From: Candidatus Omnitrophota bacterium
GTDB taxonomy: Bacteria > Omnitrophota > Gorgyraeia > Zapsychrales > Zapsychraceae
NCBI GenBank assembly: GCA_029261055.1
Contig: JAJDCA010000080.1
Location: 8,952 to 72,951 of the forward strand
Direction: 5' to 3'
DNA length: 64,000 bases
Shown here in pieces: positions 28,290 through 58,591 of the stretch (positions within the stretch are counted from its first letter, which is position 1; each line of letters begins with the position of its first letter). The notes beneath the pieces are model-generated. The model did no database searches. It saw only the letters and a program-made list of their open reading frames with translations, and had not been told where the DNA came from. The position numbers and the translations under genes were made by a program.

Positions 28290-28317
28290 TTTCTAAATAT
28301 ATTACCTGTTATCTAAT

Positions 28318-29868: not shown

Positions 29869-29895
29869 CGCAATGAATTCCTTTTATTATTTCTC

Positions 29896-32255: not shown

Positions 32256-32257
32256 AG

Positions 32258-33900: not shown

Positions 33901-33980
33901 TGTAGTAATTTATCAGCACTGAACATTCTTTGCTGTGATAAATATCACTTTCTCGAATAAAAATGTTGTTTAAAATATTC

Positions 33981-34679: not shown

Positions 34680-34704
34680 AAAGTAAGCCTGATGACTAAA
34701 GTAT

Positions 34705-36093
34705 TTAAAATATTCCGAAAAATTGACCTGCTACGATTAAAAATCCCAAACCACAAGCGCTTGAGATGGCCACCCCGTAGGATTTTTTATTCCAAAAAAT
34801 TAATACAAATCCAAATAAAATGCTGACTAACCCAATGGAAGAAAATATTTCATGATAATTTTCAACAGGTGGACGCGACATAATAATCGTAAATGAAATC
34901 ATTGCCCAGGCGTGAAGGATAAAACCTAAAATCAGCAGAAATAATGAAAAGTATGTAAAAAATGTCCTTTTAAACAAAATGTACAAAATACTCATGAAAA
35001 GGGCTATGCCGTAAAATAATTTAGTCCACAATAAAGGATTTAAATAGTTATTAAAAATTTCTATTTTAAAATGCCATGCATTAAAATTCTTCTCGCCTGA
35101 AAGAACAAGTCTGCTTTTTATCGACCGCTGAAAAGCTCGCACATCCATATCAAATTGTAATTGTTCGCCATTCCAGTAATACACAACAAGATTTCTTAGA
35201 AAATTTATTTCCTTCTCTATTTCCGGATTCTTAAACTCCCTGTTAATTGCCTCCCAAGGACTACTCCAAAATTTGTCTTGAGGATTAAGTGTTGGTATCA
35301 TTGCCACGGAACTACTTTCATAAGACATTGACCAGCGAAGAAGATTCCCCAGCAAACGTAATAACTCCTTTTCCTGGAGAGTTCTCTCTTCAATAGTTTT
35401 TTGATCAACATTTTTTGTAGCTGACATAATGGCTTCAGCTTTTGAAGCGATATCTAAAAAACTGTATAAATTCTTCCCCTGTGATAAATTGAGTAGTTGA
35501 ACAATATCATCGTTATTTACTTGAAAATCTATGTTTGGAATGGCAAAAGAAAAACTATTGGCAAGATTTGTATACAATACAATATTTTGATAAAGACGAA
35601 TGACGTCACTCTCAAAAATATTCCGATTGTTTTCTTTAATCCCCTCCGCTGATTTAGCCAGATCAATTAACTTTTGCAAGCTCGGTTCAATTTGGGCAAA
35701 GCTATATCGTCCCTTTGCTTCAGTCGCAATCTCTAATTTTGAAAGAACCTCAGCATTATTGATTAAAAAAACCTTATCTTTTCGTGTGTTTCCAGGAGAG
35801 AATAAAATTTTTGCAAGCCATTCTATTGCCGGTTTTTGGTTAAAAGAATTCTTCCCGGAAAATTGCACCATAAAACCTCGAGCATACGTATCAAGTGGCT
35901 TTATTCTCCCCTGGTCTAAAATGGCCATTGTCTTAAAATATTCCAAAGAAGATATTCCTTTAGATTTTATATTTTGCGACAAAGGGAAAATTTGCTGAGC
36001 ATAAGTATTAGACAATACGCCCCATGAATTAATAAAAATAAATATAAATATGATGTGCTTAAACATTTTTTTGTAATGTGACAATGTAAACAA
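34705..36093 (-). CDS. Membrane protein with a large periplasmic N-domain and four C-terminal TM helices, hypothetical
   Basis: Signal peptide, about 330 aa of soluble domain, then a C-terminal hydrophobic bundle. It follows the Crp/Fnr regulator. Confidence 0.45.
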   Translation of the reverse strand: MFTLSHYKKMFKHIIFIFIFINSWGVLSNTYAQQIFPLSQNIKSKGISSLEYFKTMAILDQGRIKPLDTYARGFMVQFSGKNSFNQKPAIEWLAKILFSPGNTRKDKVFLINNAEVLSKLEIATEAKGRYSFAQIEPSLQKLIDLAKSAEGIKENNRNIFESDVIRLYQNIVLYTNLANSFSFAIPNIDFQVNNDDIVQLLNLSQGKNLYSFLDIASKAEAIMSATKNVDQKTIEERTLQEKELLRLLGNLLRWSMSYESSSVAMIPTLNPQDKFWSSPWEAINREFKNPEIEKEINFLRNLVVYYWNGEQLQFDMDVRAFQRSIKSRLVLSGEKNFNAWHFKIEIFNNYLNPLLWTKLFYGIALFMSILYILFKRTFFTYFSLFLLILGFILHAWAMISFTIIMSRPPVENYHEIFSSIGLVSILFGFVLIFWNKKSYGVAISSACGLGFLIVAGQFFGIF

Positions 36094-36185
36094 TTAGTCT
36101 TAAGTAAAAAATGAAGAAATGCTATTTGAGGAAATAAGGAATGTAAAATTAGACAAAGATAAAAATATAGAAATTCCCTATAAAC

Positions 36186-36644
36186 CTATATCGTATAGAG
36201 AATAGGAGGAGCATGGGCGGGTGATGTGATAAGAAATACGATTTTAAACCTGTCGGTGCCAGGCGGGTCCAAATAATGGAAGGAATTCCAAATTTCGGAC
36301 AATTGAGAAATTTCAGCAACAACCAAAACAGCAGAATTGTTAAAAAAATCTAAAAAGTTTCTTAAGAAATCAAATGTTAAATTTTGTTTTGATGTGATGC
36401 TGACCGCTTTGATCGTAGAGCAACAAAAAGAGTCTTCTTCATCTTCATGGCTAGACGTTGCATCTTCTGAATGGGTTTCTTCATCGGATTGACTATGTGC
36501 TGCTTCAGCAGAATCGTGATGGGGGCCGCATTCAGAGGAAAGGGCTAAAGACGAAATCCCGCAAAAATTTAGTAATAGCGCAAATGAAAAAATGATAACT
36601 GGGGCAAATTTCCACTTTCTGATTGTAGAATTGATCAATTTCAT
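36186..36644 (-). CDS. Small secreted acidic His/Glu/Asp-rich protein of the 'FCCSTIKA' family (copy 1)
   Basis: Signal peptide. HSQSDEETHSEDATSSHEDEEDSFCCSTIKA. Paralog of 38344..38802. Conserved promoter/operator immediately upstream. Confidence 0.5.
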   Translation of the reverse strand: MKLINSTIRKWKFAPVIIFSFALLLNFCGISSLALSSECGPHHDSAEAAHSQSDEETHSEDATSSHEDEEDSFCCSTIKAVSITSKQNLTFDFLRNFLDFFNNSAVLVVAEISQLSEIWNSFHYLDPPGTDRFKIVFLITSPAHAPPILYTI

Positions 36645-36662
36645 CTTACTCCCTTTACAATT

Positions 36663-36706
36663 AATTATATACTAAACCCTACTGCAGTCAAGGATTTTGA
36701 AAAACA
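36663..36706 (-). promoter_or_regulatory. Sigma-70-like promoter (TTGACT-16-TATAAT) with an upstream partially palindromic element conserved with 38829..38871
   Basis: Reading the minus strand gives GTGTTTTTCAAAATCCTTGACTGCAGT...TATAAT, ending about 11 nt before the ATG. Confidence 0.4.
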
Positions 36707-36964
36707 CTGGCGACTTCCTTTTACACCGTTTTTCTATTTTCAATCCTTTGTTCTACTTAATCTTAAATCTCTGATAGTTATCATTCCTGAGAAATTTCGC
36801 CCAAATGCTCAACGAGATGATGAAGATCCTCTGCATCGGGAGGAGATTCTATACAGCTGCTTTGTTCACTTTAACCTTACTCTCTAAGGCAATAATTACA
36901 TACCCAATTACAAAAATTATGATCATCAACATGCTTATAAGGCTTCATTCTCGTTATGGTGGCC

Positions 36965-38212
36965 TTATTTTGCAAAGACCTCATGTTTTTGAAATATGGA
37001 AATCAAGGCTTCTACATTCTTATCAATATCAAATTTCTTTATCACCATTTTACGGCCATTCTGCCTAAAATTATCTGCAGGGAATTGCCCAATAAGCATT
37101 CTTGAAATGGCCGTAGACAGCGCCGACTCATTGCGGGGTTCAACTAAAATGCCGGTTTTATTATGAATAATCACCTCAGGAATACCTGAAACCTTTGTCG
37201 CAATAACAGGGGCTCCCATCGCTAAGGCCTCCAAAAGCACATTAGGGATACCATCACGGTCTCCATTGCGTGCAATGACACTAGGAACTACAAAAACCGC
37301 TGTCTTCTTAAAGTATTTCTTGATTTGCTCCTGATCAACGGAACCAGGCATTTGGATATACTGCTTAAGTCCTAATTTATTCCGTAAATTTTCCAATTCC
37401 TTTCTTAAGGGGCCTTCACCAACAAGGATACATTGAAAATTAACATTTTTACGGTTCAATATGTCACAAGCCTTAATCAAATACTCAAAACCCTTTTGTT
37501 CAACAAGGCGTCCTATGGCTAAAATTATTTTTACTTTATTCTTATTCACATTATCTAAATGAATCGGTGAAGGTATCGAAATCGAGTCTTCGGTAAAATT
37601 AAATTTTTTTATGTCAAGACCATGATAGTTCACTTCTAGTTTATTTCTTTGAATGTTATCTAAATAATTTTTATTTGCTTGCGTACACGTTACGGCAAAT
37701 GTCGCCTTTTTTAATTTTTCCCCTAAATCAATTTTAGTGCTTAAATAAATATCCCAAGCATGAGCCGTAAAACTAAAAGGAATCCCGAGTAATTCGTTAA
37801 TAATCTCGGCTCCTGTTGTTGGCATAGTTGCCCAATGAGCATGAAGGTGATGGATATTGTGTTTGTGCATTAATCGCGCAAAATACAATGATTTTAAAAA
37901 AACACATGAGGTTTTTAAAAATTTCTCAGCAGGCCATAAATTTCTTAGTACCTTAAAATATAAAATTTTGCATAATACTCTGGGCTTTTTCTTTAACCAA
38001 TACAAAAAAGAACTAAACTCTAGATTAGAGGCATAATATGTTTGTCCCAATAAGTTTTTAGCCTCAGGATGAATAATTTTATCTTTGCATTTTTTCAGAG
38101 AATAAATGTAAAAATTTATTTCTTTTTTTTTCAGTGCGGTAAATTCTCTCAAGATAAAAGTTTCATGCATTTCCGGAAATTGAGATATTAAGAATCCAAT
38201 TTTTCGCATCAT
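36965..38212 (-). CDS. Family 1 (GT4-type) glycosyltransferase
   Basis: C-terminal E.FG.P..EA.A.G.PVIATKVSGIPEVI motif of retaining GT-B glycosyltransferases. Confidence 0.85.
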   Translation of the reverse strand: MMRKIGFLISQFPEMHETFILREFTALKKKEINFYIYSLKKCKDKIIHPEAKNLLGQTYYASNLEFSSFLYWLKKKPRVLCKILYFKVLRNLWPAEKFLKTSCVFLKSLYFARLMHKHNIHHLHAHWATMPTTGAEIINELLGIPFSFTAHAWDIYLSTKIDLGEKLKKATFAVTCTQANKNYLDNIQRNKLEVNYHGLDIKKFNFTEDSISIPSPIHLDNVNKNKVKIILAIGRLVEQKGFEYLIKACDILNRKNVNFQCILVGEGPLRKELENLRNKLGLKQYIQMPGSVDQEQIKKYFKKTAVFVVPSVIARNGDRDGIPNVLLEALAMGAPVIATKVSGIPEVIIHNKTGILVEPRNESALSTAISRMLIGQFPADNFRQNGRKMVIKKFDIDKNVEALISIFQKHEVFAK

Positions 38213-38343
38213 TTTATTATCCTCGTTCTCTCTTTTTATTATCGGTTAAAATGGCGTTACTACGCCGTGATTCTAGAAAGCTGTCCGACAAATGAATATC
38301 AATGACAAACTAACTAGATAGAATTTAAAGGAAGTACTTATGC

Positions 38344-38802
38344 TTATATGGAATAAGCAAGAGGAGGTGCGTGGGAAGGTGTAGCTTTAAGAAAAATAGA
38401 TTTGAATAAAATACTGCCTGGTGGTCCGGGATCATGCGTGGAACCCCAAACAAAAAGAATCTGAGGGGTTTTTTCTATAAAAACAAATTGGGAGTGATAT
38501 GAAAATCGAGAGGAATTCCCCCGACTATCGGAAAATAATATTTTCTGAGGTGAAATACCGATGGCTTTAATAGTAGAACAGCAAAATTGGTCTTCTTCAT
38601 CCTCATGAGAATTGGCTGGATCTTCTGAATGGGTTTCCCCATGACACTGGCCATGTTCTTCCGTAGCTGCCTCTTGATGATGTTCAAATTCATCGGGATA
38701 TGCAAAGGCATCAATGCTGCAAAAATTGAGCAGCAGTAAAAAAACAAAGATGAAAACAGCAGTTATTTTACTTTTTTTAAGTATTTTCCTTATTAACTTC
38801 AT
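38344..38802 (-). CDS. Small secreted acidic protein of the 'FCCSTIKA' family (copy 2)
   Basis: Signal peptide. HGQCHGETHSEDPANSHEDEEDQFCCSTIKA. Conserved upstream promoter/operator. Confidence 0.5.
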   Translation of the reverse strand: MKLIRKILKKSKITAVFIFVFLLLLNFCSIDAFAYPDEFEHHQEAATEEHGQCHGETHSEDPANSHEDEEDQFCCSTIKAIGISPQKILFSDSRGNSSRFSYHSQFVFIEKTPQILFVWGSTHDPGPPGSILFKSIFLKATPSHAPPLAYSI

Positions 38803-38828
38803 CTTTATTGTCTTCCATTTTTTAAAAA

Positions 38829-38871
38829 ATTATACACTTAATGTACTGAAATCAAGGAGTTTTTAAACTCC
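38829..38871 (-). promoter_or_regulatory. Sigma-70-like promoter (TTGATT-15-TATAAT) overlapping a perfect 7-2-7 palindrome, GGAGTTT-TT-AAACTCC
   Basis: The motif ACTGAAATCAAGGAGTTTTTAAACTCC is conserved with 36680..36706 upstream of the paralog. Confidence 0.4.
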
Positions 38872-38885
38872 CTGATCTTTTATAT

Positions 38886-39233
38886 TCAATCTTTGACTTC
38901 TAATAACTTGAACAATCTTTTTCTGAGATTTTCACGGCAACCAAGAACATTACAAGATTCACCTGACATCTTCTCTTTGATCATAATTTCAGCAACAACA
39001 TCGTCTAAATCAAGCATAGAAACGACGCTAATAAGTTCTTTTTCTCTTGCCGTTTTTGCGGTTTCTATTAGTTTAACCGTTGGAACCCTCTGAATAAGCT
39101 TTTTATATCCAATATCCCTTAGTTCATGTTCATCATATTTACAGAAACATTTTTGGGGACATCTGCAATGTTTTTTAAATTCTATTTTATCGTTCATTGT
39201 AATTTTATATTTATAACGAATACGACAAATCAC
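38886..39233 (-). CDS. Small Cys-containing protein, hypothetical, immediately downstream of the HD-GYP gene
   Basis: HCRCPQKCFC and CNVLGC motifs. A more likely start is the internal MNDKIEF. Confidence 0.35.
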   Translation of the reverse strand: MICRIRYKYKITMNDKIEFKKHCRCPQKCFCKYDEHELRDIGYKKLIQRVPTVKLIETAKTAREKELISVVSMLDLDDVVAEIMIKEKMSGESCNVLGCRENLRKRLFKLLEVKD

Positions 39234-39237
39234 GCCA

Positions 39238-40071
39238 TTAAAGTTTTAAATTTAAAAATGTAGTTACCACATCTTTATTTAAATATTTCCCGGAGGCCTC
39301 CTTTAATTCGGAAGTAATGACCTCCTTCGTCAATGGATCTCTATATGATCTAGCCGTATTCATGGCATCAAAGGCATCAGCAACGGCTATAATTTGAGAT
39401 CCTAGAGGAATTAATTTTTTTTTGAGGCCATCTGGATACCCACTTCCATCACATTTTTCATGATGATGAAGAATAATTTCTTTTTCTTTAGATAAGAACT
39501 TTAAAGGTTTGAGTATTTGAACACCTCTTCTGGGATGATCTTTCATGATTTTCCACTCTTCATCATTAAGCGTATCCTCTTTTCTTAAGATATTATCATC
39601 GATGCCAATTTTACCAAGATCATGTAAGATGGCTGCTCGTTCAATTAATTTTTGATCTTCAACCGGCAGCTTCATTGCTTTGGCAATAGCTAAAGTATAT
39701 TCTGCAACTCTTTTTGAATGACCATGTGTATAAGGGTCTTTTGCTTCCGCCGTTAAGATTAAAGTTGAAATCATATCAATTTCAGCACGTTCCAGTTTGC
39801 TTTGAGCATTAATTAAATTTTTATTTAACAATTGAAGCCTTCGTTTATCTTTTAATTCTTGAATCCAAATATAAAACATCAAGCCTAAGACTACAATTAA
39901 AATTATCTTGTTTGCCAAAAAACTACTCGGGAATACAGCCATGCAAAAGAAATGCATGAAAACTAAAAAAAGAGCAAGCACTACGATTAAGGATTTATAT
40001 TTTTGGTGCAAGAAAAAAGTTTTGTTCAGCCGGACTATTTTATCTTTGTGTATTTTCTTGGTTACCTTCAT
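39238..40071 (-). CDS. Membrane-anchored HD-GYP domain cyclic-di-GMP phosphodiesterase-like protein
   Basis: Two N-terminal TM helices. HD motif (HDLGKIGI) and HHHEKCDGSGYPDGL (GYP). Confidence 0.85.
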   Translation of the reverse strand: MKVTKKIHKDKIVRLNKTFFLHQKYKSLIVVLALFLVFMHFFCMAVFPSSFLANKIILIVVLGLMFYIWIQELKDKRRLQLLNKNLINAQSKLERAEIDMISTLILTAEAKDPYTHGHSKRVAEYTLAIAKAMKLPVEDQKLIERAAILHDLGKIGIDDNILRKEDTLNDEEWKIMKDHPRRGVQILKPLKFLSKEKEIILHHHEKCDGSGYPDGLKKKLIPLGSQIIAVADAFDAMNTARSYRDPLTKEVITSELKEASGKYLNKDVVTTFLNLKL

Positions 40072-40162
40072 TTAACTAATCCTTTTCTTTTCTGTTCGAT
40101 TGCTGCAATGTTCCCGTCAGAATCGTAAATTTAGCGGTTATATTAGGAACAGATAACATTAT

Positions 40163-40597
40163 TTATTCCTCATTTAATGGCATCATCACAATACTACCAT
40201 CTTCAAAATTAAACTCACCGCTAAAATTAGCAGAAAAATGTTTTTTATCCTCAGTAAATAAAATATATAATGTTTTATTATCATTCATATTTTTTAAAGT
40301 CGCCCCGTATAATCCATCCTTATTTTTATAAATTCTTTTATCACTAATTGATAACCAATGTACATCTAGAATTTCTCCATCAATGGGCAAGTTATAAAGG
40401 TATATTATTAATAAAGCATTGTCGACTAGTTCCACTACCCGTAGAACTTCGGCTTGCTCCTTTAATTCTTGATTGTAATTAATCAATCCGAAACTAAAAT
40501 CAGGTATAAAAAATGATACGCTGACAAAGAATATAGTAATAACCACAATCGAATGCCAATTAGCCATCTTAACCAGCGAACATCTATTCTTAAACAT
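40163..40597 (-). CDS. Membrane-anchored hypothetical protein
   Basis: N-terminal TM, otherwise no recognisable motifs. Last gene of the CopA operon. Confidence 0.35.
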   Translation of the reverse strand: MFKNRCSLVKMANWHSIVVITIFFVSVSFFIPDFSFGLINYNQELKEQAEVLRVVELVDNALLIIYLYNLPIDGEILDVHWLSISDKRIYKNKDGLYGATLKNMNDNKTLYILFTEDKKHFSANFSGEFNFEDGSIVMMPLNEE

Positions 40598-40610
40598 GAC
40601 AGATCTCCTG

Positions 40611-42887
40611 TCATAATTTTAAGTTCCGTAATCTTAACGAATTTCCAATAACCGACACCGAACTAAAGCTCATCGCTGCTCCTGCAATTATCGGACTTAA
40701 AAGCAAACCAAAAAATGGATAAAGAACTCCGGCAGCTATCGGAACGCCCAGAGTGTTGTATATAAAAGCGAAAAATAAATTTTGCCGAATATTTTTCATC
40801 ACAGTCCTGCTTAAATACAATGCTTTAACAATCCCATTTAAATCTCCCTTAACTAAGGTTATTTCGGCACTTTCGATGGCAACATCGGTTCCGGTGCCCA
40901 TGGCAACGCCAATTTGAGCTTCAGCTAATGCCGGGGCATCGTTTATGCCATCACCAGCCATCATCACAACAGCTTCTTCATTCTTAAATTGTTTAACAAT
41001 GTCTTGTTTATCTTTCGGTTCTAGTTCAGCACGAATATCATCAATTCCCAATTCTTTAGCTATAGTTTGAGCTGTTCCTTGATTATCCCCTGTTAACATG
41101 ACTACTTTTAGTCCCATCTTGTGTAGTGCTCGAATGGCCTTTGGGGTCGTTTCTTTAATAGGATCAGCAATGCCTATAAGTCCTGCCATATATCCATCAA
41201 CAGCTACCCAAACTACTGTTTGCGCTTGTGCGTGTAGACGTGACGCTTCATTCTTCAAGTCTTCCGGTATGTCAATACCAGCCTTTTGAATAAATTTCTT
41301 TTTACCAAGCAAGATATTCTTTGCATTGACTTTTCCTTTTACTCCTCCACCGGTTACAGAGTCAAAATCCTTAACAGGGTTAAGACTCCAGTTGTGTTTT
41401 TTTGCATAATCAACTACGGCTCTGGCTAAGGGATGCTCACTACTGTTTTCTAATGAAGCTGCTAGCGTCATAAAGGCACTATCATTCCAGCCTTTTACCG
41501 CGATACAAGAAACAACTTTAGGTTTTCCCTCGGTCAGAGTACCTGTTTTGTCTATCAGAAGGTGTGTCACCTTTTCTGCTTTTTCAATAGCTTCGGCATT
41601 CTTAATTAAAATACCGCTTTGTGCTCCTCTTCCGACACCAACCATGATTGACATCGGGGTAGCCAAACCGAGAGCACAAGGACATGCAATAATTAAAACA
41701 GCAACAGCATTAACTAATGCATAAGCAAGCGCTGGCGCCGGCCCCCATATTGACCAAGTAATAAATGTAGCAATAGCACATAAAATAACGGCAGGAACAA
41801 AATACCCCGATACTTGATCAGCAAGTTTCTGAATAGGGGCACGGCTTCGTTGAGCTTCGGCAACCATATGGACAATTTGTGATAACAATGTTTCTGAACC
41901 GATTTTTTCAGTTTTCATCACAAAAGTTCCAGTTTGGTTAACAGTTGCTCCGATAACTATATCCCCTTCTTTTTTAACAACGGGGATGGGCTCTCCCGAT
42001 ATCATGGATTCATCAACCGTACTTTTTCCTTCAGTAAGCACACCATCCAGAGGGATTTTTTCTCCGGGACGGACACGCAGTAAATCTCCTTTCTGCACAT
42101 CATCAATAGCAACTTCTTCCTCTTCTCCATTTTTAAGACGATGAGCATTTTTAGCGGCAAGACCTAAAAGCGCTTTAATGGCATGACCTGTTCGATTGCG
42201 TGCTTTTGCTTCCAACAATTGTCCTAAAAGAACCAAAATCGTAATAACGGCCGCGGCTTCAAAATAAATACCGATTTCACCATGTTTTTTTAATGACTCA
42301 GGGAAAATATCCGGAAATAACACAGCCACAGCACTATAAACGTAGGCGGTGCCAACACCCATACTGATCAAAGTAAACATATTCAAGCTTTTGTTTAAAA
42401 TAGACTTCCAACCCCGAACAAAGAATATTCCACCAGCCCAAAAAACGACGGGTGTTGCTAAAATAAGTTGTATCCAATTTGAAACTTTTTGTGAAATAAT
42501 TGATTTCAAATCTAGTCCCGGGATCATCTCGCCCATCGCTAGAAGAAAAACAGGGATGCTAAAGGTAACACCCGTCCAAAATTTAAGTAATAGTGCTCGA
42601 AGTTCACGATTATTCTTTTCCTCCTCTCCATCTGTTATACTTTTTGGCTCGAGAGGCATGCCGCATTTAGGGCAATCTCCAGGCTTGTTTTGTTCTATTT
42701 CAGGGTGCATCGGACAGGTGTAAATGCTTTTTCCCGAAGTATCAAAAAAATGAGGATCGGTTTTCTGACCAGAGATAAATTTCTTTCTGCAAGCTTCACT
42801 GCAAAAATAATAGGTCTCAACATCTTGCAAAAGCTTGATAGCTTTTTTTTCGTCAATCTCCATTCCACAAATTGGATCTTTCACCAT
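40611..42887 (-). CDS. copA: Heavy-metal (Cu+/Ag+-type) P1B-type ATPase with N-terminal TRASH/YHS-type metal-binding domains instead of HMA domains
   Basis: Transmembrane CPC motif. DKTGTLT phosphorylation site, GDGINDAP hinge. The N-terminus has DPICGMEID...[12 protein letters not shown] plus a CPMHPEI...CPKCGMPL zinc-ribbon. Confidence 0.9.
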
Positions 42888-42901
42888 ACTACCCCTCGTA
42901 A

Positions 42902-43228
42902 TTAAATGGATTTCCCTGTTCTGATACTTGTCGCTTCTTCAACCGGAGATACGACAACTATACCATCGCCTTTATACTCTGTTTGAGCATTTTTAATGAT
43001 GGCCTTTTTAATTTCCTGGACTTCATTATCATCACATATTAATTCAATCTTTATCATTTCTGTATAATCAGACCCTATAGCACTATCAAAATGGTCGTAC
43101 TCTTTAAAAGCACCATGACCGACCTCTTCCACATGAACAGCCATCAGCCGCTGAATTTTTAATTTTTCCAGGACATCCAAAACATTACTGGATTTGTAGG
43201 TTCTGACATATGCTTTGATTAACTTCAT
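42902..43228 (-). CDS. P-II family (PII-NG-like) protein adjacent to the P-type ATPase
   Basis: Colinear with 4962..5300 and GlnB over the beta-alpha-beta core (KAYV...[19 protein letters not shown]). Confidence 0.65.
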
Positions 43229-43260
43229 TTTGACACCCCCCTTTAAGTGTTATTAACCAT

Positions 43261-43797
43261 CTATGAAAATTCACATTTTTTTATTTCGTTAAAAAGCTCT
43301 TTACCTTTTGAAGAGTTAATTATTGTATAACGTTCCAGAATTCTTAACTTAAGCCCATAAATAAGGACATATTCAAAATCGAAATAGTGTCCCGACACCA
43401 ATTCATCTAAATACTCCCAACGCGTTTTATCCAACAATTTTTCTGCTTCAATTAAATTTGTCATCTTGCCTGCTTCATTAATAATTTCTACTAAATAAGG
43501 CGTACTGCCCATACCCCCTCTCATATGATCCTGTGGATCTTTATTTGCTTTTTCAGCTCTATACCGGGCAATTTCGTTTCGAAATTCTTGTTCAAACTTT
43601 ATCCAAGCATTTATCACATTATTGTTAGACTGAACGCCTTCCCCATTTTCAATTATCAATTGATAGACATGTGCATAATCTTTTTCCCATAAAAGCCTCT
43701 GACAATCTTCCATAAATTTTCTTATGGTCATAGGAGGCATATCTTCAAAACAAATCGACGGTAAACTTGTTGAAAAATAATAATATGCTTTTCTCAT
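43261..43797 (-). CDS. Hypothetical cytoplasmic protein
   Basis: No recognised motifs. Co-directional within the CopA operon. Confidence 0.4.
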   Translation of the reverse strand: MRKAYYYFSTSLPSICFEDMPPMTIRKFMEDCQRLLWEKDYAHVYQLIIENGEGVQSNNNVINAWIKFEQEFRNEIARYRAEKANKDPQDHMRGGMGSTPYLVEIINEAGKMTNLIEAEKLLDKTRWEYLDELVSGHYFDFEYVLIYGLKLRILERYTIINSSKGKELFNEIKKCEFS

Positions 43798-43833
43798 TTA
43801 GAATTTTAGAAAAACTTTCCATTATAATATTTA

Positions 43834-44106
43834 TTATTCAAAAAATGAAAGCGTTTCCTCTCTTTTCTTTACTTCTTTCTCGTATTTTTCATTTAATTGC
43901 TGCATTTTTTCTTTATACTCGGCATAAGTACACGTGCCTCTAATATGCTCAAGTTCCAGGGCATCACGAGTTTGCTTATATTCAGAAAAATGCGAATCTA
44001 CTAACCATGTTCTTGGGATATGTAAATAATTATGCCAAGGTTCTTTTCCTGCATAACTGCATCCAATTAAAAATAAAGCTAGAAACAACATAAATAAATT
44101 TTTCAT
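43834..44106 (-). CDS. Small lipoprotein, hypothetical
   Basis: Signal peptide with lipobox LIGCS. Confidence 0.45.
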   Translation of the reverse strand: MKNLFMLFLALFLIGCSYAGKEPWHNYLHIPRTWLVDSHFSEYKQTRDALELEHIRGTCTYAEYKEKMQQLNEKYEKEVKKREETLSFFE

Positions 44107-46061
44107 TATCCTCCCTCTTTCTTTAAAGAAATTGTTTTGTTAAGCTCTTCTATGAATTTATCTCGACATAATAAACAACAAAAAAAATATTCTTTACCAT
44201 CCTGTTTAACCATAAAAGGATTGTCCTTTGTATGCACAATCATTTTACAAATAGGGTCTATCGACTCATCATTATGCGTTATATTTGATAGTTTTTTGGA
44301 ATAATGGGCTGAGCTGTGCTGTTGAATAACCTCCGGCATTTCTTTATGACTTTTTATTTTCAGATACATCTCAACCATTTTTTTGCACTCAGAAATATCT
44401 AAAGAATAGAAATGTTTTTTTACAGAACTCAAAACATGAAAATCCATACTTAAATTCTTAAAGCCTAATCCAATCAACACTGATAAAGCGTGTATATCTG
44501 AGGAAATCTCTCCACAAATATTTAAAGGTTTATCTATTTCATCCGATATATCTACCATAGATTTTAACATTTGAAGCGCGACAGGATCGTCTAAGGGGCG
44601 TTCTACATAGACATTGGCATTGTTTCGATCCTTTGCATAAAAATATTGAAATAAATCATTTGTCCCTATGCTGGCAAAATCAATATAATTTAATAACTCT
44701 CTAAACCCCCATACCGCTGAAGGAACTTCAATTAAAACACCTTGTTGAAAATCATTGCAATACTTCCTATTTTCCTTTTTAAGCGTGTTAATAGCCTCTT
44801 CCAATAAATTTTGCACAAACAATAATTCATCCACACCTTCAATCATCGGATATAAAATACGAAGATTTTTGGTATGTACGCCTGCTCTTAAAATGGCTTT
44901 TAATTGCGTTTTAAGAATCTCGGGATGAAAGTGATAAATTCTATGAGCTCTTAAACCTAAAGCAGGGTTATCTTGTGGGCCTAAAGAAAAGTAAGGTAAT
45001 TCTTTGTCGCTCCCAACATCTAGAGTTCGAATTGTGATAGAATACCCTTCGCATTTCGCAAAAAGCTCCGAATAAACAGCAAACTGATCATCTTCTGAAG
45101 GAAAATCCTTTCGATTGTGCATAAAAAGAAATTCTGTCCGATATAAACCGATTCCCTTTGTGCCTTTTAAGTCATTTTTATGCAGTTGTTTTGGATCAAC
45201 AATATTAAGCCATATATTCACAGGTAATAAAATTTCATTGTCTTTAATGCATTTCTCTGAAATATTTCCTTGTGTTTCTAAGAAATCTTTATCTTCGGGG
45301 TTAATGATCACTTGTGTGTTTATGGCATCAACTAGAACATGTTGAAAATTTTTTAATTGTTTAGCACTGTAAGAATTCACCTTTAACACAGGCAAACCAA
45401 AAGATCTGCTTAAAATAGCCGCATGCGAAAAAGACGTACCTTTTTCCACAATAAATCCTTTAACTCCACAATCTTTTAATTCTAAAACTAAAAATGGCGT
45501 TAATTGTTTTGCAACGACAATAGGATTTTCAACATTTTTTAATAGTTCAGAAAAAATAATTCCATTTTCTTTAGTAAGCCGATTACGGAGTCGCAGCCCA
45601 ATATCCTGAAAATCAACACTTCGCTCACGGAAAGTAATATCCTCAATTTTTTCAAATATTGAAATAATTTCTTTTAAGACATGTTCAAGGGCAACTTCGG
45701 CAGAAAATAAATCTGTACGAATTTTTTCTTGAATCTTTTTACGAAATTCTGAATCATTCAAAATGCTTACATGCGTTTGAATGATTTCAGCTTCATCAAT
45801 AAAAGAATTGCATTTTAGATCTTTTATGGTTTTATTTAAATCGTCAATAACATCAATAACTTCTTTATTAAATCGATGGATTTCATCATCAATATCCTTT
45901 TCAAGTATAGTTTTCTTGGATATTTTATGATTATCAAAGGAATTAATAAAACAGACCTGCCCCTGAACAAATCCAGAAGTGATCATTTCCCCATGAATAA
46001 TTTGTCGTTTTAGATTCTCCATTATTCTTTTCCTAATGACATCCGTGTTTTTTATCATCAA
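44106..46061 (-). CDS. PTS Enzyme I-like PEP-utilising phosphotransferase fused to a C-terminal TRASH/YHS metal-binding domain
   Basis: EI N-terminal helical domain, phospho-His mobile domain (KGTSFSHAAILSRSFGLPV) and PEP-binding TIM barrel (GTNDLFQY). The terminal 60 aa read DPICKMIVHTKDNPFMVKQDGKEYFFCCLLCRDKF. Confidence 0.72.
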   Translation of the reverse strand: MMIKNTDVIRKRIMENLKRQIIHGEMITSGFVQGQVCFINSFDNHKISKKTILEKDIDDEIHRFNKEVIDVIDDLNKTIKDLKCNSFIDEAEIIQTHVSILNDSEFRKKIQEKIRTDLFSAEVALEHVLKEIISIFEKIEDITFRERSVDFQDIGLRLRNRLTKENGIIFSELLKNVENPIVVAKQLTPFLVLELKDCGVKGFIVEKGTSFSHAAILSRSFGLPVLKVNSYSAKQLKNFQHVLVDAINTQVIINPEDKDFLETQGNISEKCIKDNEILLPVNIWLNIVDPKQLHKNDLKGTKGIGLYRTEFLFMHNRKDFPSEDDQFAVYSELFAKCEGYSITIRTLDVGSDKELPYFSLGPQDNPALGLRAHRIYHFHPEILKTQLKAILRAGVHTKNLRILYPMIEGVDELLFVQNLLEEAINTLKKENRKYCNDFQQGVLIEVPSAVWGFRELLNYIDFASIGTNDLFQYFYAKDRNNANVYVERPLDDPVALQMLKSMVDISDEIDKPLNICGEISSDIHALSVLIGLGFKNLSMDFHVLSSVKKHFYSLDISECKKMVEMYLKIKSHKEMPEVIQQHSSAHYSKKLSNITHNDESIDPICKMIVHTKDNPFMVKQDGKEYFFCCLLCRDKFIEELNKTISLKKEGG

Positions 46062-46233
46062 AATAACTTCTATCTTCCTCGGGAAAGCTTGTCATCAATA
46101 AATATCCTCCAAACATAAAAACCATATAGAAAAATAAGGCAATGCTCGTTTTAATATTAAGAAACGGAAATAAAGAAATAGAAATTAATGGAATTATGCA
46201 TCCAATCAATATATTTATTTTATATTTCTTCAT
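46033..46233 (-). CDS. Small 2-TM membrane protein (DUF2933-like?), paralog of 46501..46728
   Basis: GCIIPLISI...FMFGGYLLM. Translationally coupled to the neighbouring genes. Confidence 0.4.
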   Translation of the reverse strand: MKKYKINILIGCIIPLISISLFPFLNIKTSIALFFYMVFMFGGYLLMTSFPEEDRSYFDDKKHGCH

Positions 46234-46514
46234 TTTTTAACTCCTACCTTAAGCTGAAAATTATAAATACTGGCGACTGTTGAACCAATAAGAGTTCCTA
46301 AGATAAATGTTTGAAATATTCCTAAAATCATATCTCCTAATGGAACGTTCATTTTAATAATGGCCGAAACATCAACCCCATGCATCATACTATTAAACAA
46401 AAATATAGACGCCTCTTTACCGGCAACCGCCATAACAAAAGCGCAACCTAAATATAAAATGGCTCCGGTTAATCCAAAAGCAAAACCAAACTTCTTAACA
46501 TTAATGACCCCCAT
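46230..46514 (-). CDS. Small 2-TM membrane protein, hypothetical
   Basis: Hydrophobic. Overlaps both flanking small genes (4 nt and 14 nt). Confidence 0.4.
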   Translation of the reverse strand: MGVINVKKFGFAFGLTGAILYLGCAFVMAVAGKEASIFLFNSMMHGVDVSAIIKMNVPLGDMILGIFQTFILGTLIGSTVASIYNFQLKVGVKK

Positions 46515-46728
46515 GATTTTCCCCTCCCTTCTCTAAAGAATGTTTTTCCTCAGGCCCATGTTCCTCCCCATGACCATGTCCTTTTAACATCATCAAATGA
46601 CAGCCAAACATAAGGACAATAAAGATGAAATATGTGACATTACTGCTAACCCCAAAAGAGGGCAGAATCATAATTAATAAAAGTGGGATCATGCATCCCA
46701 GCATATGCATTAAGGCATGATTTTTCAT
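46501..46728 (-). CDS. Small membrane protein with a His-rich C-terminal tail (DUF2933/CbtB-like metal-binding mini-protein?)
   Basis: MHMLGCMIPLLLIMILP...FMFGCHLMM followed by KGHGHGEEHGPEEKHSLEKGGENHGGH. Confidence 0.45.
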   Translation of the reverse strand: MKNHALMHMLGCMIPLLLIMILPSFGVSSNVTYFIFIVLMFGCHLMMLKGHGHGEEHGPEEKHSLEKGGENHGGH

Positions 46729-47429
46729 ATCCTTACCTCCTGAGTATGTTTTTGAAAAACAGTATATAAAAAGTTTTGGTTCGTTTGAAACGGAGTTATA
46801 TGGTTTTCCTTTAGACTTTTAATCAGGCTAAAGTCATCTAAGAATACGTTCTTTATAGATTCTTCTGAATATTGTGTGACCTTTAACCTGCTGCACTTCT
46901 TAGGTCCTTCCGTCGAAAATGTCGCTATAATCATATAGCCACAAGGTTTAATCAACTTACCTGCCACTTTGACATACTCTTTAATGTCTTGCTTGGAAGT
47001 TAAAAAATGAAAAGTGGCCCAGTCATGCCAAATATCGAATCGCTTCTCTGTATCAAAATCTAATATATCCGAAACAATCCATTCTACATTTCGGGAATAT
47101 TCTCCAAGTCTTTGCTGAGATTGTTCCAATGCTTTGACAGATATGTCTAAAACGGCGATATCCTTAAAATTTAATTCGATGAGTTTATCCACAAAGACAG
47201 AATTTCCGCCTCCTACATCAATAATAGAAGCATTCTGATCAGGGTTAAACGACAGAATCAAATCTATAGAAACTTGGAGATTCTGCTTATACCAACTAAC
47301 TTCATTGAATTTCTTTGTTTGATAAACATCTTCCCAATGTTTTTGCCTCGATTGTTTTTTAAATTTAAAGATGTTTTGCATTGCTTTATCTCCGAATACC
47401 GAACTTTGGTATAAATGCCGGAACGCCAT
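46725..47429 (-). CDS. Class I SAM-dependent methyltransferase, paralog of 14208..14831
   Basis: IIDVGGGNSVFVDKL. The likely real start is the internal MQNIFKF (about 47381), which gives a 5-nt overlap with the upstream ICMT-like gene rather than 44 nt. Confidence 0.75.
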   Translation of the reverse strand: MAFRHLYQSSVFGDKAMQNIFKFKKQSRQKHWEDVYQTKKFNEVSWYKQNLQVSIDLILSFNPDQNASIIDVGGGNSVFVDKLIELNFKDIAVLDISVKALEQSQQRLGEYSRNVEWIVSDILDFDTEKRFDIWHDWATFHFLTSKQDIKEYVKVAGKLIKPCGYMIIATFSTEGPKKCSRLKVTQYSEESIKNVFLDDFSLIKSLKENHITPFQTNQNFLYTVFQKHTQEVRI

Positions 47430-48036
47430 TTTTATAAATCAAATATTCTTCCCCAAATTGCTTTTCGACAGCGCTTTCTTCTCTCATCGCTAATTTAGAA
47501 TAAGCAAACATTAAGATTGGCCACATAACAATTGTTGTTAATGAGGGCCATTGAATAAGAAATCCTACTGTAATTAAAAATAGCCCTGTATATTGAGGAT
47601 GTCGTACATGTGAATACACACCTCCTGTTACTAATTTTTCTCCCTTAGATTCATGGATTAATTTCCAGCCTAAGTGTAAAAGTATAAAACCTCCAAAAAT
47701 AATCAGATTACTTATAATATGAAGAATTGTCATTGCTATATTAGAATCCGCCAAGCCAAGAAATACCAACCATAAATGCCCGTGATGATGAGAAAATGGA
47801 TCAAGAACAGGGTAAGTTTGTCCCATCCACGAGGATAGAAAATAAATCGTTAGGGGGAACCCATACATCTCTGTAAATAATGCAACTATAAATCCAATGA
47901 AGACCCCCATCGTTCTCCATTCGAATTTCTTTTTCGGTCCAATAAAACTGATAACGAAGAATACCAGAAGAAAACTATTAAATATCACCACCGGCCACAT
48001 ACCGTAAGCGTAATTGCCCAAGTGTTGTCCGTGCAT
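47386..48036 (-). CDS. Membrane methyltransferase of the ICMT / phospholipid-methyltransferase family, paralog of 11922..12392
   Basis: Multi-TM. SHVRHPQYTGLFLITVGFLIQWPS and the C-terminal REE..L...FGEEY motif. Confidence 0.68.
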   Translation of the reverse strand: MHGQHLGNYAYGMWPVVIFNSFLLVFFVISFIGPKKKFEWRTMGVFIGFIVALFTEMYGFPLTIYFLSSWMGQTYPVLDPFSHHHGHLWLVFLGLADSNIAMTILHIISNLIIFGGFILLHLGWKLIHESKGEKLVTGGVYSHVRHPQYTGLFLITVGFLIQWPSLTTIVMWPILMFAYSKLAMREESAVEKQFGEEYLIYKNGVPAFIPKFGIRR

Positions 48037-48054
48037 TTTTTTATACCTCCTCTT

Positions 48055-49473
48055 TTAAATTGTTAAAATATCTTCCTTAACTTCATCTAGCGCATCTTGT
48101 GAAACATGTCCTGCTTCGATTAAAGCTTTTATACTCTGTTGTAATGTATGCATTTTTTCACGCATTCCTGTCTGTATATAACTACGAATTTCTTGAATAC
48201 GATTCTGACGAATAATATTACGCAAAGCCAATGTAGCAACCATAACCTCCGTAGCAACGATCATACCAGTTCCATCCATTCGATTAATCAAACGCTGTGA
48301 ACAGATCGCCTGTAAAGATTGAGCTAATTGCGTACGAATGAGTGCTTGCCGCTCTGAATCAAAAGCATCCAATATACGCGTAATGCTCTGTGTAGCTGTA
48401 CCGCTATGCAATGTCCCTAAAACAAGATGTCCTGTTTCTGCCGCTTGTATGGCTAAAGAAATGCTTTCAAAATCTCTTAATTCTCCTATAACGATAATGT
48501 CAGGATTCTCACGTAATGAGCTTCTTAAACCATCAGCAAAAGAATTCGTATGCCAACCAACTTCTCTTTGATGTATGAGTGATCGTTGATTTGGAATAAT
48601 ATATTCGATAGGATCTTCAATAGTAATAATATGTCTTTCTTCATTTTGGTTAATCGTATTAATAAATGAAGCCAAAGTTGTCGTTTTACCGCTTCCCGCG
48701 GGCCCGGTAATTAATACCATACCGTGTCTAATACGAATAAGATCTTCAAAAACATCTGGTAAATTTAACTCTTTTATAGTAGGTATTTTGTAAGGTAACG
48801 GTCTGATGGCAACAGCGATACCATTCTGTTGCCGAAAAATATTGATACGAAATCGCGAAAGTCCTTTTATATCTAAACCAATATCTACGTCATGTCCTTG
48901 TTGAAATTGTGCCTCCTTTTTTTCCGGCATTATTTCTTTAATAAATTTATCTATCATTTGTTTATTTAATGGCTTCTCGTTAATCTGTTTGAATACACCA
49001 TAAATTTTAAGCATTGGAGTTTCTCCAACCGAAAGAAATAAATCCGATGCGTTTTGTTTAACCGCTTCTTCAAACCATCGAATTATTATTGAATCGTTTG
49101 CCGGTTCAATTTCATGAAAGGCAGAGCTATCAGTTTGCTTATCTAACGTTTCTTTTTTTAAAAATGTACTTGCGCACGTGGAACAACAAAATTTAAATAG
49201 TTTTCCGTGAATATTCATTTCAGAATATTCTTCTCCTTCTTTAATCTTCTTAGAGCAAAGTTCACAAATACCGATTTCACAAACTGTTTTATTTAAACCG
49301 GCAAATCTTTTTGGATTCATTTGAAAAGACTGCATACAAGACAAAGAACAAAATACATATTTTTTCCCCTCATAATCTTGAAGTAAAGCATTCGATTCTG
49401 CCGCTTTATCTAATACTTCCATATTGCATACAGGATCCCGTGCCATTTTATTCTCCTTAGACAAACCAAACAA
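48055..49473 (-). CDS. pilT: PilT-family type IV pilus retraction ATPase with an N-terminal extension of about 130 aa containing two TRASH/zinc-ribbon metal-binding motifs
   Basis: Intact Walker A GPAGSGKTTTLAS, ITIEDPIEY, His box and the C-terminal PilT region. The N-terminus has DPVCNMEVL...KYVFCSLSCMQSF (C-x24-C-x3-C) and CELCSKKI...KFCCSTCASTF. Confidence 0.85.
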   Translation of the reverse strand: MFGLSKENKMARDPVCNMEVLDKAAESNALLQDYEGKKYVFCSLSCMQSFQMNPKRFAGLNKTVCEIGICELCSKKIKEGEEYSEMNIHGKLFKFCCSTCASTFLKKETLDKQTDSSAFHEIEPANDSIIIRWFEEAVKQNASDLFLSVGETPMLKIYGVFKQINEKPLNKQMIDKFIKEIMPEKKEAQFQQGHDVDIGLDIKGLSRFRINIFRQQNGIAVAIRPLPYKIPTIKELNLPDVFEDLIRIRHGMVLITGPAGSGKTTTLASFINTINQNEERHIITIEDPIEYIIPNQRSLIHQREVGWHTNSFADGLRSSLRENPDIIVIGELRDFESISLAIQAAETGHLVLGTLHSGTATQSITRILDAFDSERQALIRTQLAQSLQAICSQRLINRMDGTGMIVATEVMVATLALRNIIRQNRIQEIRSYIQTGMREKMHTLQQSIKALIEAGHVSQDALDEVKEDILTI

Positions 49474-49521
49474 ACTTTCGGTTTGGTCAAACTTCTTGAT
49501 TTGACGATTATATTTTGTTAA

Positions 49522-49899
49522 TTACGATCTCAGTATCTTTTCGGCTTCAAACCAATCATCACTATCCTTTCCGTGACAACATCCTCTCTTCTCATAAAGT
49601 TCGTACGCCTTTGCTTGAATTTCTTTGTTTAAGTCAATCGGACAATTCAAAGTTACCTTCTTGAAATCTTTTATTTTATTTTTTTTAGTTTTTACAGTTT
49701 TTTTGACCATTTTAATATCCTTTCTTTTATTGTTATTTCCTTTTGCGGGAAGATAATCACAGCAATTAGCATATTTTCTTGGTTCAGATAAAAAATTCCT
49801 TCTACAGGTTTTACAACAAAAATAATAAATAATACCGTCGATAACGCCGCTGATATGTTTTTTTGAAGACTCTTTGATGCAAACTGGACACATTTCCAT
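49522..49899 (-). CDS. Small TRASH/zinc-ribbon protein with a basic linker and a C-terminal DUF2934-like tail
   Basis: CPVCIKE...YYFCCKTCRRNF. K-rich middle. C-terminal W.EAE.IL. Confidence 0.5.
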   Translation of the reverse strand: MEMCPVCIKESSKKHISGVIDGIIYYFCCKTCRRNFLSEPRKYANCCDYLPAKGNNNKRKDIKMVKKTVKTKKNKIKDFKKVTLNCPIDLNKEIQAKAYELYEKRGCCHGKDSDDWFEAEKILRS

Positions 49900-49933
49900 T
49901 TTTAATCTCCATATTTTTTAAAATCCTATTTTC

Positions 49934-50501
49934 TCATTTAACCCGATTAGGTTTTTGTCTTCTCTGATATCTTCTACTATTTGAGAAATTTCTTACTCTA
50001 ATTCCATTATTAATAGCCCCGCGCATAAGCCTTTGATTAGACATCCTTTTTTGATTGGGAAATTTTCGAGTTGTAATATTATTAGAAATACGTTTTTGAT
50101 TCGGATTTTTTTTCGCAGTAGTTCTATTACTAGAACTGTTGCCTCCTCCTGTCGTTGGTTTTGAAGAAGTAGTGTGTAAGCTGGGCGTAAACCCTGATTT
50201 AGAAAACCGCAAAGACCCTCCCGAATATTTCCCCTTCATCCCATCAACACGCATAACCAAACGATGAGATTTATATAATAAAAAATCATCCGGCATACTT
50301 TTTTTCATATACTCCATCGCATCATCATTCGCCCATAATTTCATCCAAGCAGCATGAATCTTATCCTGATCCTTTTCAAAAACAGCTTCTCTAAAATCTT
50401 TAATAATACGTATTTCAAAACTTTTTTGAGCATATCCGAAAGAGGAGAAATATAAAAAACTAAATAAAGCGATCAGTAAGATTTTCATCATGCCCCCTTT
50501 G
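49934..50501 (-). CDS. Secreted basic protein, hypothetical
   Basis: Signal peptide beginning MMKILLIALF, with a GGGGG SD-like element just upstream. The low-complexity N/R/T-rich C-terminus suggests a shorter start than the ORF-track call. Confidence 0.4.
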
Positions 50502-50632
50502 AAGGATACTAAACTGAAACAATTTATATACCATTCCCAACACATTCCATCCTGATAAGCCTACGTTTAAATTCTTTTATTTAAATCAACTAAGTTTTCT
50601 ATAATTTGTCTTTTTGTATTTTCTTTCCAATC

Positions 50633-50869
50633 TTAATGAAGATGTACGCCTTGCTCCTTTACAATATTTTTCTTACTTATAAAAAAAATATTCTCTCCCA
50701 TTTCTTCCATCGTTATAAGTCTTTCCCTTATTAACCATCCTAAGCTCATAAGAATATCCTCTTTACTGTACCCGAGATAAGCCCCAATTTCCCTGTCTGT
50801 TAATGGACCTTTGACTTCATCAAACAATTCTAAAATTTCTCCTGAAACGATACCAATGTTTATCATCAT
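50633..50869 (-). CDS. Small winged-helix-like protein (paralog family copy 2)
   Basis: GIVSGEILELFDEVKGPLTDREIGAYLG...LMSLGWLIRE. Confidence 0.5.
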   Translation of the reverse strand: MMINIGIVSGEILELFDEVKGPLTDREIGAYLGYSKEDILMSLGWLIRERLITMEEMGENIFFISKKNIVKEQGVHLH

Positions 50870-50941
50870 TTCACACCTCCTAATTGATAGTTTATAATTC
50901 CAATCACCTAATTTTCTGTTTGTTTTACCACCGTTTTGTCC

Positions 50942-54720: not shown

Positions 54721-54755
54721 ATTTTTTTGCTCCTTTCATAAGAGGACTTTTATCG

Positions 54756-56495: not shown

Positions 56496-56524
56496 TCGAT
56501 CCCCCCCTATTTAATTTAAGAATA

Positions 56525-57811: not shown

Positions 57812-57812
57812 T

Positions 57813-58560: not shown

Positions 58561-58591
58561 GCCCCCACCTTCTTTCCTGAAACTTTAAAAT

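Follow-up and report, generated by a model that had tools for sequence, protein, structure and literature searches.

The DNA analysed here, which we call the window, is a 64,000-nucleotide stretch of the Candidatus Omnitrophota contig JAJDCA010000080.1 (assembly GCA_029261055.1, positions 8,952 to 72,951 of the forward strand). Its minus strand encodes a paralogue of Enzyme I (EI), the phosphoenolpyruvate (PEP)-dependent enzyme of the phosphotransferase system (PTS), which ends in a YHS/TRASH module and stands among genes for copper handling. We refer to this protein as EI-YHS. Residue numbers follow the 651-residue frame that opens at TTG 46061. We prefer ATG 46022 as the start, giving 638 residues, because the database calls the gene from there (P0001), an AGGA stands 9 nt in front of it and it lies 10 nt past the stop of the upstream 66-residue open reading frame (ORF), which a start at TTG 46061 would overlap.

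The three domains of EI follow one another in order, as a sequence-only reading of the locus had proposed, and each scores above its Pfam cutoff: PEP-utilisers_N (PF05524, residues 24-147, 69 bits), the mobile phospho-His domain (PF00391, residues 179-246, 43 bits) and PEP-utilizers_C (PF02896, residues 281-551, 250 bits). The score against TIGR01417 (PTS_I_fam) is 410.9 for a cutoff of 341.7, which places the protein in that family, and residues 23-574 align with the E. coli EI structures (2HWG/2KX9) at E=1.8e-80. The predicted phospho-histidine is His213, the histidine of TSFSHAAIL (codon 45423..45425, minus strand), which matches His189 of E. coli EI. Altogether, H213, R308, R345, R371, E445, N468, D469 and C516 correspond to E. 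coli H189, R296, R332, R358, E431, N454, D455 and C502; in the E. coli enzyme His189 is the phospho-histidine, R296, R332, R358, E431 and D455 are PEP/Mg ligands, and C502 is the proton donor. All eight positions are invariant in an alignment of 30 diverse members of the family described below. The N-terminal helical domain that binds HPr is kept and is conserved as in ordinary EI, and the AlphaFold model shows the EI fold with a mean predicted local distance difference test (pLDDT) score of 77. Judged by these residues, EI-YHS is apparently enzymatically active.

Beyond the core, a variable linker (residues ∼575-600, with pLDDT <50 at 583-597) leads to the terminal module, whose motif is IDPICKM…YFFCCLLCRDKF and whose conserved pattern is D-P-x-C…F-C-x3-C, the ligands at its end lying in (Y/F)-F-C-x3-C. 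Residues 599-640 fold apart from the core in the AlphaFold model, as beta hairpins and a helix. In the 30-member alignment D602, P603, C605, F627 and C628 are invariant, and M607 and C632 are at least 90% conserved. The Pfam YHS match (residues 601-638) reaches 27.3 bits, under the gathering score of 30.3, and Arc_trans_TRASH reaches 22.3 bits, also under its cutoff. Such scores would fit a tail that came from a separate small ORF through a frame error, or a chance similarity; the sequence-only reading had itself named a frame error as what would overturn the fusion. However, the reading frame is uninterrupted, the ligands are invariant, most homologues have PF04945 in precomputed Pfam annotation, and 108 clusters (90% identity) from many assemblies, among the 120 that match best in the database, contain the same tail motif. 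Because those independent clusters carry the same tail, we take it as genuine and rule the artefact out, its probability being next to nil. The tail, as read from sequence and model, is a conserved candidate metal site of one Asp and three Cys (plus Met), held on a flexible tether at the end of the dimerisation/PEP-binding domain.

EI-YHS separated from other EI proteins in an exhaustive profile search, which covered 1.84 billion representatives grouped into 50%-identity clusters. About 24 full-length EI-YHS clusters score 650-912 bits, with matches that run through the tail positions; below them come shorter fragments and then ordinary full-length EIs at 540 bits or less, among 8,096 EI-like clusters in all at E<=1e-30. 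In a neighbour-joining tree the 31 tail-bearing EIs are monophyletic with respect to 78 ordinary EIs, and identity is at least 36% within the clade as against a median of 30% to ordinary EIs. The clade has signature motifs of its own, of which GPQENPYLGLRAHRIYRFHPEI is an example, and its barrel signature LPYFSLGPQENPYLGLRAHRIYRFHPEI retrieved 42 further family loci from metagenomes. By source name, the members include Deferrisoma camini, Rhodothermia, Planctomycetota/Phycisphaerae/Sedimentisphaerales, and delta and other Proteobacteria. EI-YHS is thus a discrete, monophyletic and uncharacterised EI subfamily. The sequence-only reading had called such a regulatory chain undescribed. For the fusion this holds in the literature, in which we found no paper describing an EI joined to YHS/TRASH; in a 2008 survey of PTS phosphoryl-transfer proteins, the word "metal" does not occur and the fusions described are of the HPr/IIA type only. 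It does not hold for the databases, where the fusion is already present and automatically annotated as "phosphoenolpyruvate-protein phosphotransferase", "putative PEP-binding protein" or "YHS domain-containing protein".

The gene order around EI-YHS in the window is compact (Table 1). The EI stop codon TAA overlaps the ATG of the following lipoprotein gene (TAATG), which is preceded by the Shine-Dalgarno sequence GAGGGAGGA, and from this arrangement the lipoprotein gene is predicted to be translationally coupled to the EI gene. There follow the 178-residue gene after 36 nt, a PII gene after 32 nt, the copper ATPase (CopA) gene after 14 nt, a DUF6488 gene after 13 nt and an HD-GYP-type gene after 91 nt. 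The order and strand of the genes from EI to the ATPase are those first reported, but EI had been taken for the first gene of the string, and seven co-directional genes, from 49899 down to 46033 and with overlaps or gaps of <50 nt, precede it. A promoter/terminator scan of 38800..51000 gave counts at background level and no convincing coding-strand intergenic terminator between 49899 and 39238, which is no more than compatible with one long transcription unit.

To place this arrangement among its relatives, we compared the neighbours within 10 kb at 49 EI-YHS loci, which come to 30 distinct groups once EIs are pooled at 90% identity, with those at 79 ordinary-EI loci; the latter came from a contig scan with generic EI motifs that gave 80 loci, of which L044 alone was a family member. 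Copper P1B-ATPase genes occur in 14 of the 30 EI-YHS groups and at none of the 79 controls, with a Fisher p of 9e-10 that overstates the significance and is indicative only, because the 30 loci are phylogenetically non-independent and the controls come from other taxa. This is the co-occurrence of EI-TRASH fusions with P1B-ATPases that had been put forward as a check, and it is borne out. The ATPase gene lies on the EI-YHS strand in 11 groups, and in L106 and L112 it comes after EI-YHS at +26 and -31 nt, respectively. The neighbouring ATPases have CPC motifs (CopA-type) in 8 groups and CPH motifs with His-rich N-termini (CopB-like) in 7, and since they are of these two types we take the metal link to be specifically with copper. 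The commonest neighbour is an ICMT/PEMT methyltransferase (16/30 groups vs 0/79), which shares the EI-YHS strand in 13 groups and typically stands ∼20 nt directly upstream. DUF5676 proteins (8/30), PII proteins (6/30) and CsoR (4/30) are likewise found at no control locus. Homologues of the small transmembrane (TM) proteins, with the 75-residue His-rich protein (HisTM75) as phmmer query, occur in 9/30 groups vs 0/79; by clustering, the 75- and 66-residue membrane proteins form one family, present at 7 of 30 distinct loci. The family of the 66-residue protein, which in the window precedes EI-YHS, sits after it in other lineages, and small TM and DUF5676 genes overlap downstream of EI-YHS in several. 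Stand-alone small YHS proteins accompany EI-YHS in 16 of the 30 groups; other recurrent neighbours are YHS-fused thioredoxin-reductase-like, SHOCT, DUF302, RseC-like and Rieske proteins. The members of the subfamily reside in copper-homeostasis islands.

PTS partners show the opposite distribution. No HPr gene was found at any of the 49 EI-YHS loci, the 64-kb window included, as against 63 of the 79 controls by the same method; EIIA-Ntr (0/49 vs 10/79) and EIIA-Glc (0/49 vs 25/79) are absent from the EI-YHS loci as well, and a six-frame translation of the window holds no homologue of the three. The earlier observation that PTS partners are not nearby therefore extends to the family, and these absences place EI-YHS outside the sugar PTS. 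The linkage to copper ATPases makes a PtsP-like regulatory enzyme tied to metal status the most reasonable reading.

Three closely related islands, L133, L135 and L136, bear on how far this reading can be taken. They were found through the window PII protein, whose nearest named relative (77% identity) is from Candidatus Omnitrophica, and are probably Omnitrophota. They share a backbone with the window in the same gene order (Table 1), L135 also holding a DUF6488 copy 31% identical to the window protein, and the EI and DUF2764 genes are absent from all three. In these EI-less islands the 66-residue and lipoprotein genes are direct neighbours. Between the lipoprotein and PII genes is a slot that in the window is occupied by the DUF2764 gene, in L133 (8953..9678) and L135 (8950..9675) by a K+-channel gene (Ion_trans_2 + TrkA_N) and a 94-residue ORF, and in L136 by nothing; the cargo of the island varies at this site. 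As three related islands do without it, EI-YHS is an accessory cargo gene, dispensable for the backbone. Base composition gives no sign whether the gene was gained in the window or lost from the related islands, its GC content (0.318) and third-position GC content (GC3, 0.246) being within the range of its neighbours.

The evidence so far can be set against an alternative, namely that EI-YHS is an ordinary housekeeping EI whose tail is a structural zinc ribbon and whose position in the island is incidental. Its membership in PTS_I_fam and its intact catalytic and HPr-binding domains would fit, and TRASH folds can be structural, as in L24e (PMC4626032). On the other hand, the copper-gene neighbourhood recurs across phyla and never beside ordinary EI, HPr is never adjacent, the proteins form a separate clade with motifs such as GPQENPYLGLRAHRIYRFHPEI, and the islands closest to this one manage without the gene. 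We consider this alternative quite improbable.

The sequence-only reading had proposed a regulatory chain in which a metal-gated EI feeds the PII-NG protein, directly or through a carrier, and PII-NG may in turn gate CopA. The components are as it described them. In the window PII an alignment shows that the RQKG motif and Tyr51 are lost and GDG and (R)IRTG kept, and this T-loop, together with the linkage to an efflux gene 14 nt downstream, marks the protein as PII-NG-like. CopA has TRASH-type rather than HMA N-domains, with a YHS match at residues 2-37 (27 bits, sub-threshold), an HMBD at residues 56-82 (PF19335, 42.8 bits) and no Pfam match to HMA; it scores 607 bits against TIGR01511 (cutoff 397) and contains CPC, YN(x)4P and MxxSS (MSFSS), the motifs of P1B-1 ATPases. 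In favour of the chain, the EI, PII and CopA genes are co-directional and separated by short gaps, and the 6 groups counted above have a PII gene no more than 10 kb from EI-YHS, directly adjacent in L087 and L125. Against it, 24 of the 30 groups have no PII, an alignment of the PII proteins linked to EI shows T-loops without the canonical RQKG/Tyr51 and with no conserved His, Ser or Tyr that might serve as acceptor, and L133, L135 and L136 hold PII and CopA (77-81% and 66-80% identity) with no EI. We know of no phosphotransfer from EI to PII. The pairing of PII-NG with a metal pump is an established association according to Sant'Anna 2009, as that work is cited in PMC7726332. It also recurs within the window, where a second PII protein, 37% identical to the first, is encoded directly downstream of the RND pump 5315..8419 in the classical PII-NG/czc arrangement. 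PII and CopA form a pair of known type, separate from EI and independent of it, and we regard the chain as very unlikely. What is supported in the earlier proposal is an EI with an intact core, a copper link and no sugar PTS around it, most reasonably read as a PtsP-like regulatory enzyme; its relay to PII-NG is not supported.

A further alternative dispenses with HPr altogether. The YHS tail may serve for metal exchange or recruitment, pairing with the many YHS/TRASH proteins of the island (the CopA N-terminus, small YHS proteins, TRASH-PilT), and so bring EI to the membrane machinery, where it would directly phosphorylate an island component such as ICMT, a small TM protein or DUF5676. The gene arrangement agrees with this proposal, in that ICMT lies ∼20 nt upstream and small TM and DUF5676 genes overlap downstream in several lineages, small YHS proteins occur in 16/30 groups, and HPr is never linked. 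Yet the HPr-binding helical domain is retained and conserved, and the neighbouring ATPases often have HMA or His-rich N-termini instead of YHS, so that YHS-YHS pairing cannot be obligatory. To our knowledge there is no precedent for an EI that phosphorylates membrane methyltransferases, and we think this explanation unlikely.

EI activity requires dimerisation of the C-terminal domain, and EI-Ntr is regulated through a fused sensor domain. On this background, the mechanism that we tentatively favour, and consider a realistic possibility, is that copper on the tail switches the PEP-dependent autophosphorylation of EI-YHS and that the phosphate passes to an HPr/NPr-type carrier encoded elsewhere. 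EI-YHS would autophosphorylate from PEP on His213, a reaction that would depend on dimerisation of the C-terminal barrel. The YHS module, hanging on its flexible linker of ∼25 residues at the end of the dimerisation domain, would bind a metal, most likely copper, at its site of Asp and three Cys (plus Met), and binding would switch the activity. Transfer of the phosphoryl group to the distant carrier would then couple copper status to a PEP-dependent phosphorelay. Gating by metal, the identity of the metal, the direction of regulation and the phospho-acceptor are elements that we infer. In the dimeric adenylyl cyclase of Mycobacterium phlei, a C-terminal YHS domain confers activation by copper (PMC4626032).

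Several points weigh against this mechanism. YHS domains may be ligand-free or structural, as in toluene-4-hydroxylase, and ribosomal L24e is itself a TRASH domain (PMC4626032). The YHS match of the tail is sub-threshold, the p-values of the neighbourhood comparison are inflated, and, as the nearest relatives of the island lack the gene, any role of EI-YHS would be auxiliary. A broader form of the proposal ranks EI-YHS as a regulatory PTS branch of its own, the third after the sugar PTS and PTS-Ntr. It would be a copper-gated, PEP-driven phosphorelay whose state of phosphorylation reports cytoplasmic copper against metabolic state (PEP/pyruvate), and it would tune the machinery of copper efflux or homeostasis (CopA/CopB, the ICMT/DUF5676 membrane module, possibly PII-NG) in mostly uncultured anaerobes from several phyla. 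We offer this wider view as speculative and rather doubtful.

Table 1. Coordinates of EI-YHS and other features of the window, with the identity of backbone proteins to their counterparts in the three EI-less islands (L133, L135, L136)
Feature	Position	Strand	Basis or remark	Identity in EI-less islands
Three sets of outer-membrane factor, membrane-fusion protein and RND pump (OMF-MFP-RND)	about 5315..11306, 51607..57811, 60719..63976	-		
RND pump of the shared backbone				87-95%
CsoR	57813..58115	-		
TRASH + DUF2934 small protein	49522..49899	-	Pfam; probable first gene of the co-directional string	55-60%
PilT-family ATPase with two N-terminal TRASH/YHS modules (TRASH-PilT)	48055..49473	-	Pfam; TIGR01420, 422 bits	64-66%; L133 copy at 4978..6387
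ICMT/PEMT-family membrane methyltransferase (CzcN-like)	47386..48036	-	profile matches	76%; absent from L136
S-adenosylmethionine (SAM)-dependent methyltransferase, soluble	46725..47429	-		
75-residue small membrane protein, His-rich tail	46501..46728	-	ORF	74-79%
DUF5676 two-TM protein	46230..46514	-	77.5 bits	63-82%
66-residue small membrane protein, directly upstream of EI	46033..46233	-	ORF	52-76%
EI-YHS, Enzyme I paralogue	44106..46022 (ATG) or 44106..46061 (TTG)	-	Pfam + TIGR01417	absent
YHS/TRASH module of EI-YHS, residues 601-641, IDPICKMIVHTKDNPFMVKQDGKEYFFCCLLCRDKFIEELN	44139..44261	-	Pfam, alignment, AlphaFold	
Predicted lipoprotein, 90 residues, LFLIGC lipobox	43834..44106	-	ORF	73-79%
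DUF2764 homologue, 178 residues	43261..43797	-	Pfam DUF2764, 66.9 bits	absent
PII-family protein, divergent T-loop (PII-NG-like)	42902..43228	-	Pfam P-II, 53.7 bits	77-81%
P1B-1 (CopA-type) Cu(I) ATPase, N-terminal YHS + HMBD	40611..42887	-	TIGR01511	66-80%
DUF6488 protein, N-terminal membrane anchor	40163..40597	-	30 bits vs cutoff 27	
HD-GYP-type (HD_5) protein, membrane-anchored	39238..40071	-	Pfam; last conserved backbone gene	68-73%
Plastocyanin-like protein	24774..25385	-		
MerR	23462..23893	-		
MerC	22813..23193	-		
ArsR	22130..22504	-		
Second PII protein	4962..5300	-	Pfam, 88 bits	

The genes immediately downstream of EI-YHS could be characterised further. The gene first described as hypothetical encodes a homologue of DUF2764 (PF10962), the match covering profile positions 192-263 only. 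Only six homologues were found among 5.8 billion clusters, and the nearest of them (34-45% identity) are encoded in V/A-type ATPase operons, between the genes of subunits E and A (L129, 7767..8342; L131, 2777..3268). V-ATPase genes are missing from the 64-kb window, and a DUF2764 gene from every other EI-YHS locus. The window gene is a stray homologue of a V/A-ATPase-operon protein, set beside PII and P-type ATPase genes. The 90-residue lipoprotein matches no Pfam family, even at E<=10. Two ideas about it were dropped: a SHOCT-like identity, suggested by eye, finds no Pfam support at that limit, and a remnant of V-ATPase subunit E has neither Pfam support nor similarity to the upstream protein of L129.

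The window as a whole is a one-strand metal island. Every gene-like ORF of at least 100 residues lies on the minus strand, the GC skew is negative throughout, and no tRNA gene was found in positions 1..64000. Besides the genes of Table 1 it encodes DUF302, DUF2231 and DsbA-like proteins, and its ICMT genes, that of the table included, number two. A run of small YHS/TRASH proteins, three in all with 121, 186 and 113 residues (59264..60700, minus strand), comes directly after the RND pump 60719..63976; one of them has two modules, including a zf-FCS-like one. Two paralogous 152-residue secreted or anchored proteins (36186..36644 and 38344..38802, minus strand; 45% identical, E=1e-44) flank a putative glycosyltransferase-like ORF (36965..38212); they belong to no Pfam family, share a His/Glu/Asp-rich stretch and the conserved motif HEDEEDxFCCSTIKA, and are likely to bind metal. 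An MtrA-like protein (tetrahydromethanopterin S-methyltransferase subunit A) with a pterin-binding DUF4346 (20134..21264, minus strand) is encoded just downstream of ArsR/MerC/MerR and might conceivably be connected with metal(loid) methylation.

TRASH-PilT is a hexameric ATPase within a copper island, and pilus genes are absent from the flanking island genes. A second PilT/T2SSE-like ATPase of the window is divided between neighbouring ORFs in two frames (1682..2311 and 2313..2849, minus strand), one for the N-terminal portion, which includes the P-loop, and one for the C-terminal portion; the gene for a response regulator (2893..3285) adjoins them, and the split may reflect a frameshift or a pseudogene. 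At the Deferrisoma camini locus (L001), a 359-residue PilT-like ATPase that matches T2SSE only, without the N-terminal TRASH region, is found near EI-YHS. The same locus has a CutA1 gene (7914..8231), whose product has a PII-like fold and is associated with divalent-cation tolerance, two genes upstream of EI-YHS on the opposite strand. A hemerythrin/PAS gene lies between them, and CutA1 is the only nearby PII-fold gene.

Enzyme I is among the best-studied bacterial signalling enzymes, and of its sensor-fused regulatory forms only EI-Ntr, with its GAF domain, is understood. If the proposed mechanism is true, the phosphorelay logic of the PTS has been recruited for metal homeostasis, and central carbon status, in the form of PEP, is linked to copper handling. 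The experimental entry is convenient: one soluble enzyme in a simple PEP autophosphorylation assay with and without copper. Deferrisoma camini (GCA_000526155.1), whose EI-YHS is P0100 and which has an assembled contig of 4.2 Mb, offers a named, sequenced host. The analysis also draws attention to conserved, unstudied accessory genes of copper islands, namely the ICMT/CzcN-like, small His-rich membrane, TRASH-PilT and DUF5676 proteins, for the last of which we found nothing relevant in the literature.

Among known systems, EI-Ntr (PtsP) resembles EI-YHS in joining an EI core to a small-ligand sensor domain, in being regulatory and in not being encoded with sugar permeases. Its sensor, however, is an N-terminal GAF domain for glutamine/2-oxoglutarate, whereas the candidate sensor of EI-YHS is the C-terminal YHS/TRASH module, and Pfam finds no GAF domain in the protein. 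The PtsP model NF008283 gives 307.5 bits against a cutoff of 583, on the EI core only, and the genomic context is one of copper genes, not of rpoN/ptsN/ptsO. Canonical PtsI, represented by the E. coli structures 2HWG/2KX9, has the same three-domain architecture and all the catalytic residues; EI-YHS differs from it in its ∼30% identity, its separate clade, its additional linker and tail and its lack of adjacent ptsH/crr, and scores 345 bits against the PtsI equivalog NF008382 (cutoff 824). The window PII protein can be likened, by T-loop and gene context, to the PII-NG proteins of czc-type efflux operons (Sant'Anna 2009; GSU2134), as far as these are presented in PMC7726332, which likewise have a non-canonical T-loop and a gene adjoining a metal pump; it differs in being paired with a P1B-ATPase where they have an RND pump. 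TRASH/YHS copper P1B-ATPases and the archaeal TRASH regulators CopT/CopR use the same module for copper trafficking or sensing in one neighbourhood, but they are pumps or transcription factors and none is a phosphotransferase. The class III adenylyl cyclase of M. phlei likewise has a C-terminal YHS domain with Asp and three Cys, placed on a short linker behind a catalytic domain that must dimerise (PMC4626032). There copper switches the enzyme on and the output is cAMP synthesis, whereas the output of EI-YHS would be PEP-dependent phosphotransfer.

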